From NCBI RefSeq assembly GCF_050320075.1, contig NZ_CP190018.1: DNA of 64,000 nt; one strand, given 5' to 3'. Shown piece after piece: positions 3,001-9,000 of this stretch; within the stretch, counting starts at the first letter, position 1, and every line of letters begins with the position of its first letter. The position numbers were made by a program. This DNA comes from Escherichia coli (GTDB lineage: Bacteria; Pseudomonadota; Gammaproteobacteria; Enterobacterales; Enterobacteriaceae).

Positions 3001-6000
3001 CATCCTGGGTCAGCATAACGTCGTATTGTTCCAGCGTTTGCGGCAACGTCAGGCCAAGTACATTTTTCACATCACGGTTCAGTAATCCCGCACGATCCAG
3101 CTCGCCGAGAATACCGATAACACCACCAGCCCGGTGAACATCTTCCATATGGTATTTTTGGGTGCTCGGCGCAACTTTACACAGCTGCGGAACCTTGCGG
3201 GAAAGCTTATCGATATCACTCATGGTGAAGTCGATTTCCGCTTCCTGCGCCGCCGCCAGCAGGTGAAGTACGGTGTTGGTAGAGCCGCCCATTGCGATAT
3301 CCAACGTCATGGCGTTTTCAAACGCCGCTTTGCTAGCAATATTGCGCGGCAGTGCACTTTCGTCATTTTGCTCGTAGTAACGTTTGGTCAATTCAACAAT
3401 GCGTTTACCGGCATTGAGGAACAGCTGCTTACGATCGGCGTGAGTTGCCAGCAGCGAGCCGTTGCCCGGCTGCGACAGGCCCAGCGCTTCGGTCAGGCAG
3501 TTCATTGAGTTAGCGGTAAACATCCCGGAGCAGGAGCCGCAGGTCGGACACGCGGAACGTTCAACCTGATCGCTCTGGGAGTCAGAAACTTTCGGGTCTG
3601 CGCCCTGGATCATCGCATCAACCAGATCGAGCTTGATGATCTGATCGGACAGTTTGGTTTTCCCGGCCTCCATCGGGCCGCCGGAAACAAAGATCACCGG
3701 AATATTCAGGCGCAGGGAAGCCATCAGCATCCCCGGGGTGATTTTGTCGCAGTTAGAGATGCAGACCATGGCGTCGGCGCAGTGGGCGTTGACCATATAC
3801 TCAACGGAATCAGCGATCAGTTCGCGAGATGGCAGTGAATAAAGCATCCCCCCGTGGCCCATGGCAATCCCATCATCCACCGCAATGGTGTTGAACTCTT
3901 TGGCAACGCCGCCAGCCGCTTCAATTTGTTCGGCGACCAGTTTACCAAGATCGCGCAGATGGACGTGACCCGGTACAAATTGGGTGAACGAGTTCACAAC
4001 CGCGATAATCGGCTTACCGAAATCGGCGTCGGTCATTCCGGTGGCGCGCCACAGCGCACGAGCACCCGCCATATTACGACCATGAGTGGTGGTGGCGGAA
4101 CGGTACTTAGGCATACTTTATTTACTCCCAGTGTCTGTCTCGTAAATGGGACGGTGCGTGCCGTCCCATTTTTTGTATTTATTGATTAACTTGATCTAAC
4201 CAGCCCCATTTATCTTCGGTTTCGCCAGTGAAGAGGCCGAAGAAGGCTTGCTGAATGCGTTTGGTAACCGGGCCGCAACGGCCTTCACCAACCTGAATAC
4301 CGTCTACACTGCGCACTGGCGTGATTTCTGCCGCAGTACCGGACATAAACACTTCATCCGCCAGGTACAGTGATTCGCGCGACAGCACCTGCTCACGCAC
4401 TTCAATTCCCAGCTCTTTCGCCAGTTTGATGATGGCGTCACGGGTAATACCCGGCAGCGCGGAGGAGGTGAACGGTGGGGTGAACAGCACACCATCTTTC
4501 ACTTCAAACAGGTTTTCGCCTGCGCCTTCAGAGATATAACCGTTCACATCCAGCGCGATACCTTCCTGATAACCGTGGCGGCGCGCTTCGCTACCCACCA
4601 GCAGGGAAGAGAGGTAGTTACCACCGGCTTTTGCCGCCGTCGGGATGGTGTTTGGTGCTGCGCGGTTCCAGGAGGAAACCATCGCATCGATCCCCTGCTC
4701 CAGCGCTTCTGCACCCAGATAGGCCCCCCACGGGAAAGCGGCAATAATCACATCGGTTGAGTATCCCGCTGGCGGGTTTACGCCCATGCCAACATCACCA
4801 ACGAAGATCAGCGGACGGATATAGGCGCTGGTGAGATTGTTTTTGCGGATCACGTCACGACAAGCTTCCATCAGCTCATCAATGCTCTGCGAAACCGGGA
4901 AGCGATAGATTTTGGCGGAGTCATGCAGACGCTGCATATGCTCACGATGGCGGAATACAACCGGTCCTTTGTGCGAGTCGTAGCAACGGATGCCTTCAAA
5001 AACCGAGGTGCCATAGTGCAGCGCGTGCGACATCACATGCACCTTCGCGTCTTCCCAGCGAACCATCTCCCCATTGAACCAAATGTAATCAGCTTTCTTC
5101 GTGGTCATTTTTATATTCCTTTTGCGCTCAGGCGCGGATTTGTTGTGATGTGGTTGTGCTCTGGCAGATGGCAACGTGTGCGACGTCCACCAGTTTATTT
5201 AACTGACTAAACAGTAAGTCGACCGACCGTGGGCTGGCAACGGTCAATTCGATATTTATATTTTGTGCATCGCTGGCGGCGGCCATATTCATTGAACAGA
5301 CGTGGAAACCACGATGACGCACCACGCGTAAAACACGTTCTAAGGTTTCCGGATTGAAGCGAGCCGATACATTGACCTGATGTTGCATCATGATAATTTC
5401 TCCAACATTTCTGAATTACTGGCACCAGGCGGCACCAGCGGCCAGACGTTCTCAAGTTCGTCGATTGAGACATGAAGCAGGTATGGCCCATCACTGTTCA
5501 GCATGGTGTCGAGTGCCGCTTCAACCTGGTCTTTACGGGTGATGTGTTGGCCAGGGATGCCGAAGGCGCTGGCTAACATGAGGAAATCGGGGTTATCAGT
5601 AAGGGTTGTTTCGCTGTATCGTTCCTGGAAAAACAGTTGCTGCCATTGTCGAACCATCCCTAACCGTTGGTTATCGAGTAAGACGATTTTCAACGGTAAC
5701 TGCTTGCGTTTTACGGTGCCCAGCTCTTGCACATTCATCATGAAAGAGCCGTCACCGGAGATACAGACGACGGTATCGTTCGGTCGCGCGACTTGTGCGC
5801 CAACCGCCGCAGGTAAACCAAAACCCATGGTGCCTAAGCCGCTGGAGGTGATGAAATTTTCCGGGCGAGTGTGGGCGATGTGCTGGGCAGCCCACATCTG
5901 GTGCTGCCCCACATCTGTGGTCACGACGCAATCCGCAGGTTTTCGATCCGACAGTTGTTTTAACAACAACGGCGCGTAGATAGCGTCACCGGGATGGTCG

Positions 6001-9000
6001 TAACGCCAGGTATGTTCATCACGCAGCTGCGCGCAGTATTGCTGCCAGTCATTGATATTTAACGGCTGCTGTAATGCTGGTAAAAGAGCATTTAAATCAC
6101 CCTGTAAAGCCACATGTACCTGACGCAGCTTGTTCATTTCTGCCGGATCGATATCCATATGGATAACGCTGGCGTGTGGTGCGAAGGTGTTCAGTTTGCC
6201 AGTCACCCGGTCATCAAAACGTGCACCCACGGCGATCAGCAGATCGCACTCCTGCACTGCGAAGTTCGCCGCTTTGGTGCCGTGCATTCCCAGCATGCCC
6301 AGATAGTACGGATAATCCGCTTCAACTGCGCCCAGCCCTTTCAGCGTGCAGGTGACAGGCATTTTTGTGGTAGCGAGAAATTCACGCAAAGCCGGAACTG
6401 CCTGCGCCATGCCAACGCCACCGCCAACGTACAGCATCGGTTTTTGCGCTTTTGCCAGCATCTGGCGCGCTTGCTCGACTTCGGCATGGGGGAAAGTCAC
6501 TTCGTTTTCAACGGTGGTGAACCACGGTTCCAGATCGCCGCTGGCTAACTGGATATCTTTTGGGATATCGACCAGAACCGGACCAGGACGACCTGAGCTG
6601 GCAACGTCGAATGCTTCAGCCATGATGCGCGGCAACTCTTCCAGCGACTGCACCAGAAAGCTGTGCTTGGTACAGGCTAATGACAATCCCAGTACATCCA
6701 CTTCCTGAAATGCGTCAGTGCCGATAAACGGTGCAGACACCTGACCGGTGATGGCAACGACAGGGATGGAATCTAACAGTGCGTCCGCAAGCCCGGTTAT
6801 CAGGTTGGTTGCACCTGGACCAGACGTGGCGATACATACGCCAGTTTTGCCGGTAGCACGGGCATAACCGATAGCCGCCATTGCTGCACCTTGCTCGTGT
6901 CGGCACAGCAAGTGTTCCACGCCACCGTCATACAATGCATCGTAAACCGGCATAATTGCGCCACCCGGATAACCGAAAACGGTGTTCACACCCTGTGCCC
7001 GCAACGCATGTACCACCCACTGTGCGCCATTCATAGTTAGTTCCCCGTCCTGAATCTTGAGAAACAGAATTTTGTGCTGTTATTCATTGTCTGCTCCTCA
7101 GTTATGTTTTTAAGGTCAAAAAAAACCCCCGGACCTTTCGGTGCGGGGGTCTTAGTTCGTTAAGGCTTGATCTCTAAGCCTTTCCTCGTCCAAGTGCAGC
7201 CCCGCACGGTGGGATAATAATCACCACCACGCTAATCACGACCAGGCTAATCACTCGTAGAAGGGCTGTCATTTTGTCTTTTCTTGCATCTTGTTCGAAG
7301 GAATGCCTAAAGAGTTACCATAGATTTTGCGAATAGCACAAGATATTTTTTGGCCTATTTTTATGATGTCTTTAATAATTTCAAGAGAAATTGTTGTTTT
7401 TTAAAAAGAAAATAGTGAGTGAAAAAAATTCAATTTCAGTATGAATGTTGTTCCCTTCCTCGTAGTTCATCCTTTGCCCGCTGCATTTTTGCGAGCATCA
7501 TTCCACCGCCAGAACAACTCAACTTCACTTACACAAATAAACCGGAATCAGCCACTAAAATTCACGAATTAGCGGGCTACAGCAGCGATATCTTATGCAC
7601 ATAATGGTGACTCAAGGAGGGCTTATGTCACTGTCAATTGTTCATACCCGCGCAGCCCTGGGAGTAAATGCGCCCCCAATCACTGTTGAGGTACATATCA
7701 GTAAAGGTCTACCCGGCTTAACGATGGTGGGCTTACCAGAAACAACGGTAAAAGAAGCCCGCGATCGCGTGCGCAGCGCCATTATCAATAGCGGATATGA
7801 ATATCCGGCGAAAAAAATCACCATCAATCTGGCTCCAGCCGATCTGCCAAAAGAAGGGGGACGATATGATTTACCTATCGCCATTGCGTTGCTGGCGGCC
7901 TCAGAACAGCTTACAGCCAATAAATTAGATGAATATGAATTAGTCGGAGAACTGGCGCTTACAGGCGCTCTGCGTGGCGTTCCCGGCGCAATCTCCAGTG
8001 CAACTGAAGCTATTAAGTCGGGCAGAAAAATTATCGTCGCGAAAGATAACGAAGATGAAGTGGGGCTAATTAACGGTGAAGGATGCCTGATAGCCGATCA
8101 TCTGCAGGCTGTCTGTGCGTTTCTGGAGGGTAAGCACGCTCTCGAACGCCCGAAACCAACTGATGCAGTATCCCGGGCGCTACAACATGATCTCAGTGAT
8201 GTTGTCGGTCAGGAGCAAGGAAAGCGAGGACTGGAAATTACCGCCGCTGGCGGGCACAACCTTTTACTGATTGGGCCGCCGGGAACAGGTAAAACAATGC
8301 TCGCCAGCCGTATTAATGGCCTGTTGCCAGATTTAAGCAATGAAGAGGCACTGGAGAGCGCTGCGATATTAAGTCTGGTAAATGCTGAATCAGTACAAAA
8401 ACAATGGCGGCAGCGCCCGTTCCGCTCACCTCATCACAGTGCGTCGTTAACTGCGATGGTGGGCGGTGGTGCAATTCCAGGGCCAGGTGAAATTTCGCTG
8501 GCGCATAACGGCGTGCTTTTTCTTGATGAGCTACCTGAATTTGAACGGCGTACACTGGATGCCTTGCGAGAGCCGATTGAATCCGGGCAGATCCATCTTT
8601 CACGCACACGAGCAAAAATAACCTATCCAGCCCGTTTCCAACTTGTTGCGGCGATGAATCCCAGCCCTACCGGACATTATCAGGGAAACCATAACCGCTG
8701 CACACCAGAGCAAACGCTGCGTTATCTCAACCGACTCTCTGGTCCCTTTCTCGACCGCTTCGATCTCTCACTGGAGATCCCATTACCGCCACCCGGCATT
8801 TTGAGTAAAACGGTAGTGCCGGGAGAAAGCAGCGCCACCGTTAAACAACGCGTAATGGCCGCCAGAAAGCGCCAATTTAAGCGGCAGAATAAACTGAACG
8901 CCTGGCTGGATAATCCGGAAATACGCCAATTCTGCAAGCTTGAGAGCGAAGATGCGCAGTGGTTGGAAGAAACGCTGATCCATCTGGGGTTATCGATTCG

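Follow-up and report, generated by a model that had tools for sequence, protein, structure and literature searches.

Does the ilvG gene of this Escherichia coli chromosome still encode a complete enzyme, and, if so, does the DNA belong to a natural lineage or to a derivative of the laboratory strain K-12? The gene lies in a 64,000-nucleotide stretch of contig NZ_CP190018.1 (assembly GCF_050320075.1), referred to below as the window, and encodes the catalytic subunit of acetohydroxyacid synthase II (AHAS II). E. coli has three AHAS isozymes, and AHAS II is free of feedback inhibition by valine. In K-12, a frameshift in ilvGM inactivates one isozyme, while valine exerts feedback inhibition on the remaining ones, ilvBN and ilvIH (PMC7066862). 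Therefore, an excess of valine makes K-12 an isoleucine auxotroph. As reported in PMC3446290, ilvG is frameshifted in K-12 and intact in B strains, the gene mediates valine resistance, and MG1655 does not grow on valine dipeptides. The analysis of the window indicates that its ilvG is almost certainly an ordinary wild-type allele, encoding a full-length AHAS II catalytic subunit, and that the DNA comes from a natural ST38-like E. coli lineage distinct from K-12.

In the list of open reading frames (ORFs) of the window, ilvG appears as a single ORF of 548 amino acids on the minus strand, exactly at 5388..7034, starting with ATG. No stop is present inside its translation, the sole stop being the terminal one. 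The chance that 548 random codons contain no stop is roughly (61/64)^548, or ~4e-12, and the ORF is therefore not random. At its end, positions 5395..5385 of the minus strand read TATCATGATGC, in which the ATG of ilvM (5391-5389) and the TGA of ilvG (5390-5388) form an ATGA overlap at 5388-5391. A preliminary description of this DNA had proposed both the uninterrupted 548-amino acid frame and the overlap of the ilvG stop with the ilvM start, and both proposals are borne out.

Next to be considered is the K-12 lesion itself. Window ilvG was globally aligned to the corresponding gene in the K-12 reference (NC_000913.3, 3949500-3953500), where ilvG (b4488) is annotated as a pseudogene. Exactly one indel separates the two sequences: 2 bp at gene positions 977-978 are missing from K-12, the gene being 1647 bp long in the window and 1645 bp in K-12 MG1655. 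The placement of this gap is ambiguous within an ATAT tetranucleotide (Table 1), itself inside the heptamer AAATATC. At this site the window reads GTTAAATATCAATGAC (…L N I N D…), with AAATATC undeleted, and translation reads through, whereas K-12 reads GTTAAATCAATGA (…L N Q stop), with AAATC and a TGA stop at codon 328. Past the lesion, the shifted frame of K-12 ilvG stays open up to the normal stop, which fits a single, recent lesion in K-12. Neither the 2-bp deletion nor the premature TGA at codon 328, which together define the K-12-type pseudogene, is found in the window, and the alignment to K-12 that had been suggested as a check on the open frame revealed no internal stop or frameshift. 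The two loci are orthologous and share the same flanking genes (yifB, ilvL, ilvX, ilvM and ilvE), but translation of the K-12 gene ends at codon 328 and that of the window gene continues to 548 amino acids. Besides the indel, there are 53 substitutions between the two genes (96.8% identity, 3.2% divergence). At the codon level, 46 differences are synonymous and 7 nonsynonymous, a ratio that indicates purifying selection on ilvG.

How common the intact gene is was surveyed in 5426 complete E. coli genomes, using junction queries for which the other allele is unable to supply the 28-nt exact word required by megablast. The K-12 junction (41-mer) was found in 340 genomes, or roughly 6%, and the intact junction (43-mer), which is also that of the window, in at least 4625, where both counts concern the K-12 lesion site only. 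A further 461 genomes matched neither junction, presumably as a result of single-nucleotide polymorphisms that break the 28-nt seed. The sampled genomes with the K-12 junction are largely MG1655, DH1, BW25113, ER-series, JM83, XL1-Blue and Stbl4, together with lab-evolved lines, transconjugants and O16:H48 mouse-colonisation strains. The share of about 6% reflects how frequently laboratory strains are sequenced. Intact ilvG is the norm of the species and the broken copy of K-12 is the exception, as was already known.

The allele of the window is also found in nature. Its 2.2-kb ilv locus has counterparts of at least 99% identity in 140 of the 5426 genomes. Among the matches listed, at least 40 independent genomes of natural isolates are 100% identical over these 2.2 kb, all 40 being annotated with an intact ilvG, and the identical isolates listed originate from humans, dogs, gulls, a cow, a chicken, shellfish, river water and wastewater. 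This nucleotide identity covers ilvL-ilvX-ilvG-ilvM and the start of ilvE, with the same gene order and the same ATGA coupling, and the wild-type ilvG of natural isolates (RefSeq WP_001551957.1) is the same allele as that of the window, with no difference. These genomes also bear on the idea that the frame is open only through an error of sequencing or assembly, e.g., a homopolymer or dinucleotide miscall masking a real frameshift. Indel errors are conceivable at the site in question, since it is a short ATAT repeat. However, such an error is hard to reconcile with the base-for-base recurrence of the sequence in at least 40 independently sequenced genomes and of the intact 43-mer junction in at least 4625, and the probability of an artefact is practically negligible.

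For longer stretches of the window, 1-25000 (25 kb) and 42000-64000 (22 kb), the best matches reach 99.9-100% identity. The strains concerned include Ec-U3 (urine, Burkina Faso), a strain named 'ST38' and MS14384, whereas K-12 falls in the 95-99% identity band. ST38 has been placed in phylogroup D (PMC2646131). Near-100% identity to MG1655 was observed neither across the locus nor over the 64 kb around it, and no bgl operon is located between phoU and yieH. The preliminary description had left the origin of the DNA open between a non-K-12 lineage and an ilvG-restored derivative. The first part stands, given the 99.9-100% identity to ST38-like isolates, while the second does not agree with the 53 mismatches to K-12 in ilvG. 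A K-12 derivative with restored ilvG would be either a spontaneous valine-resistant revertant or the result of an engineered ilvG+ repair. An intact frame, taken alone, is compatible with such an origin, and genomes of this kind may exist, as NZ_CM183442.1 is K-12-sized and has the intact junction. Against it stand not only the mismatches in ilvG, but also 16 in ilvE and 14 in the regulatory region, the closer match to ST38-like natural isolates than to K-12 over 25 kb, and an islet between phoU and yieH of the non-bgl type, unlike the bgl type of K-12. The restored derivative was rejected based on the divergence from K-12 and the 100% identity to natural isolates, and we regard it as highly improbable.

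The genome NZ_CM183442.1 (strain BHUCD01) is an observation in its own right. With 4,641,498 bp, compared to 4,641,652 bp for MG1655, it has an intact ilvG junction at 3951388-3951430, almost at the coordinate of the MG1655 lesion (3951513). Possible explanations are a K-12 derivative in which ilvG was restored, a closely related natural strain, or an assembly guided by a reference.

The phoU-yieH interval offers a second view on the lineage of the natural, ST38-like allele. In K-12, this interval contains bglG-bglF-bglB-bglH-yieL-yieK-cbrC-cbrB. In the window, it contains an IS1, a truncated effector gene and espY4, with no bgl genes (Table 1), so that the IS1/cassette at this locus, put forward earlier as a mark of a non-K-12 strain, does serve as one. 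The islet (51500-54800) has a G+C content of 30-34%, compared to about 50-55% in its flanks. According to Sankar et al. (2009; PMC2646131), two alternative islands occur between phoU and yieH, either bgl or the AT-rich (about 30% G+C) Z5211-Z5214 'Z-locus', and the Z-locus is assigned to phylogroup D (ST31, ST38 and ST59). Likened by description, position and G+C content, the islet of the window is consistent with this Z5211-Z5214 or type III alternative island, matching the ST38-like assignment.

In the same interval, the 9-bp sequences on either side of the IS1 differ (accgggctg and cctgtgcgt), i.e., there is no target-site duplication. IS1 is absent from this position in a close relative, strain E1 (NZ_CP115821.1), which possesses an extra 2.5-kb hypothetical gene and the full 1188-bp pentapeptide-repeat gene. 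Judged by these sequences, the arrangement has the appearance of an adjacent deletion of about 3 kb associated with IS1, and it is shared with strains Ec-U3 and YZLc1-3.

The protein encoded by ilvG was then considered. IlvG matches the NCBIfam equivalog NF006524 (acetolactate synthase 2 catalytic subunit) with 1072.4 bits, compared to a cutoff of 738, and the alignment is full length (protein 1-547 to profile 1-547, of 548). Three Pfam domains are identified, all far over their gathering scores: PF02776 (1-115), PF00205 (186-321) and PF02775 (374-522). These are TPP_enzyme_N, TPP_enzyme_M and TPP_enzyme_C, i.e., the N-terminal Pyr, central and C-terminal PP domains of enzymes that use thiamine diphosphate (ThDP). 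IlvG keeps the catalytic Glu47 and the ThDP-Mg motif GDG-X(25-30)-N at 427-456, and also has F109, M250, R276, V375, M460 and W464, residues to which mutagenesis studies of AHAS II point. By sequence, the nearest protein of solved structure is E. coli AHAS I IlvB (PDB 6LPI; residues 2-544 aligned, E = 2.4e-162). It is a homologous AHAS catalytic subunit of the ThDP/flavin adenine dinucleotide type, but a different isozyme from AHAS II; AHAS I is valine-inhibited via IlvN. Among the solved-structure matches with an E-value up to 1e-50, no chain of E. coli AHAS II was found.

Based on the ORF list and the annotation of 100%-identical genomes, the complete ilvL-X-G-M-E-D-A operon is present in the window, which is the gene context expected for this IlvG family. 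IlvL, IlvX, IlvM and IlvE are all identical in protein sequence to those of K-12, with 16 silent nucleotide differences in ilvE and 2 in ilvM. From the start of ilvL to ilvG, one nucleotide differs from K-12, at window position 7100, outside the hairpin of the attenuator. When positions 7160-7105 of the minus strand were folded, the attenuator RNA reached -23.3 kcal/mol (z = -4.17), and none of 200 shuffled sequences was as stable. A scan for consensus terminators missed the ilv attenuator on the minus strand and gave a single match, a weak plus-strand site in the same palindrome. In the mechanical ORF list, two genes at this locus have over-extended starts of no biological significance: ilvE is listed from TTG 5174 (annotated ATG 5108), and yifB (7595-9145) is listed from 7595 (annotated start 7625).

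A few points weigh against reading the gene as an ordinary, functional wild-type allele. Seven residues differ from those of a frame-repaired K-12 IlvG, namely S146C, T222A, V227A, V306A, Y333H, T342S and P494H (window residue first). The region between yifB and ilvG has 14 differences from K-12, and 13 substitutions are located upstream of ilvL, in the yifB-ilvL intergenic region, some of them about 50-65 nt from the ilvL ATG. In addition, the promoter scan was uninformative about the strength of ilvP, with 2 matches compared to 1.0 expected, which is no better than chance, and the level of ilv expression is presumed. Missense or promoter changes of this kind could leave the frame open and AHAS II nevertheless inactive or unexpressed, in which case the strain would still be valine-sensitive. 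However, every catalytic and cofactor residue that was checked is conserved, the full-length equivalog score is far over its cutoff, and the 46:7 ratio of synonymous to nonsynonymous differences argues for ongoing selection. The same allele moreover recurs in many isolates of independent origin (humans, dogs, birds, a cow, a chicken, shellfish and water), and the leader, the attenuator and ilvM are intact. An inactive or unexpressed AHAS II is therefore considered very unlikely. It is very doubtful, too, that the seven substitutions alter the preference for 2-ketobutyrate over pyruvate, the residual valine sensitivity or the herbicide sensitivity of the enzyme. If they did, the AHAS II of the ST38-type lineage would differ in function from the textbook enzyme.

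With the full-length wild-type allele as the preferred reading, a route to valine resistance can be proposed. In this strain, ilvG would be transcribed within ilvLXGMEDA under leader-peptide attenuation and would be translationally coupled to the small-subunit gene ilvM. The translational stop that K-12 has inside ilvG, upstream of ilvMEDA, would be lacking. Since AHAS II is not inhibited by valine, the supply of isoleucine precursor would persist and acetohydroxybutyrate for isoleucine would still be made under excess valine, resulting in valine resistance. From established biochemistry and the two studies mentioned above (PMC7066862, PMC3446290), it is a sound inference that the strain should be valine-resistant.

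The coordinates of the features discussed are listed in Table 1. Elsewhere in the window, the LysR-type regulator gene yidZ (about 58607-59564, minus strand) is frameshifted: its frame breaks after about 230 amino acids and resumes in another frame. The gene is annotated as 'frameshifted' in the identical genome Ec-U3, and the relative E1 has an intact yidZ of 319 amino acids. A complete ribosomal RNA operon, comprising 16S, tRNA-Glu, 23S, 5S, tRNA-Asp and tRNA-Trp, is located at 10562-15787 on the minus strand, between hdfR and yieP, according to the annotation of a 100%-identical genome. For the unwinding element of oriC, which consists of three AT-rich 13-mers, a query with the exact K-12 sequence gave one exact match at 31803-31851 on the minus strand, just upstream of an ORF of the size of mnmG/gidA (31962-33851), which places the replication origin of the chromosome inside the window. 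A degenerate consensus of the 13-mer gave no match in the window.

Table 1. Position of the ilv operon features and of the phoU-yieH islet features in the window
Feature	Coordinates	Strand	Description and basis
ilvA	717-2261	minus	Intact; ORF and annotation of Ec-U3 (100% identical)
ilvD	2264-4114	minus	Intact; ORF and annotation of Ec-U3 (100% identical)
ilvE	4179-5108	minus	Intact; ORF and annotation of Ec-U3 (100% identical)
ilvM, AHAS II small subunit	5128..5391	minus	87 amino acids; NF008362 with 133.9 bits (cutoff 68); Pfam ACT_5; protein identical to K-12 IlvM
ilvG, AHAS II catalytic subunit	5388..7034	minus	Intact coding sequence of 548 amino acids; ORF; NF006524; Pfam; 100% identity to WP_001551957.1 of natural isolates
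ATAT tetranucleotide, site of the K-12 2-bp deletion	6055..6058	minus	Undeleted; codons N326-I327; global alignment to b4488
ilvX	7037..7087	minus	16-amino acid peptide; ends 2 nt ahead of the ilvG ATG; annotated in identical genomes; identical to K-12 IlvX
Attenuator terminator	7118..7151	minus	G+C-rich hairpin at about 7126-7151, followed by a U8 tract at 7118-7125
ilvL	7174..7272	minus	32-amino acid Ile/Val/Leu-rich leader peptide of the ilv attenuator; ORF; identical to K-12 IlvL, MTALLRVISLVVISVVVIIIPPCGAALGRGKA
IS1, complete	50725-51492		768 bp; left-end sequence matches exactly at 50725, right end at 51492
'Type III effector'/pentapeptide-repeat gene, 5' remnant	about 51494-52036	minus	C-terminus missing; directly adjoins IS1
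espY4, type III secretion system effector	about 52345-54753		Followed by yieH

Taken as a marker, an intact ilvG rules out K-12 and tells little more about a strain; it is a quick way to recognize that this window is not from K-12. It has long been known that the frameshift is peculiar to a single laboratory lineage, K-12, whose valine sensitivity is not representative of the species.

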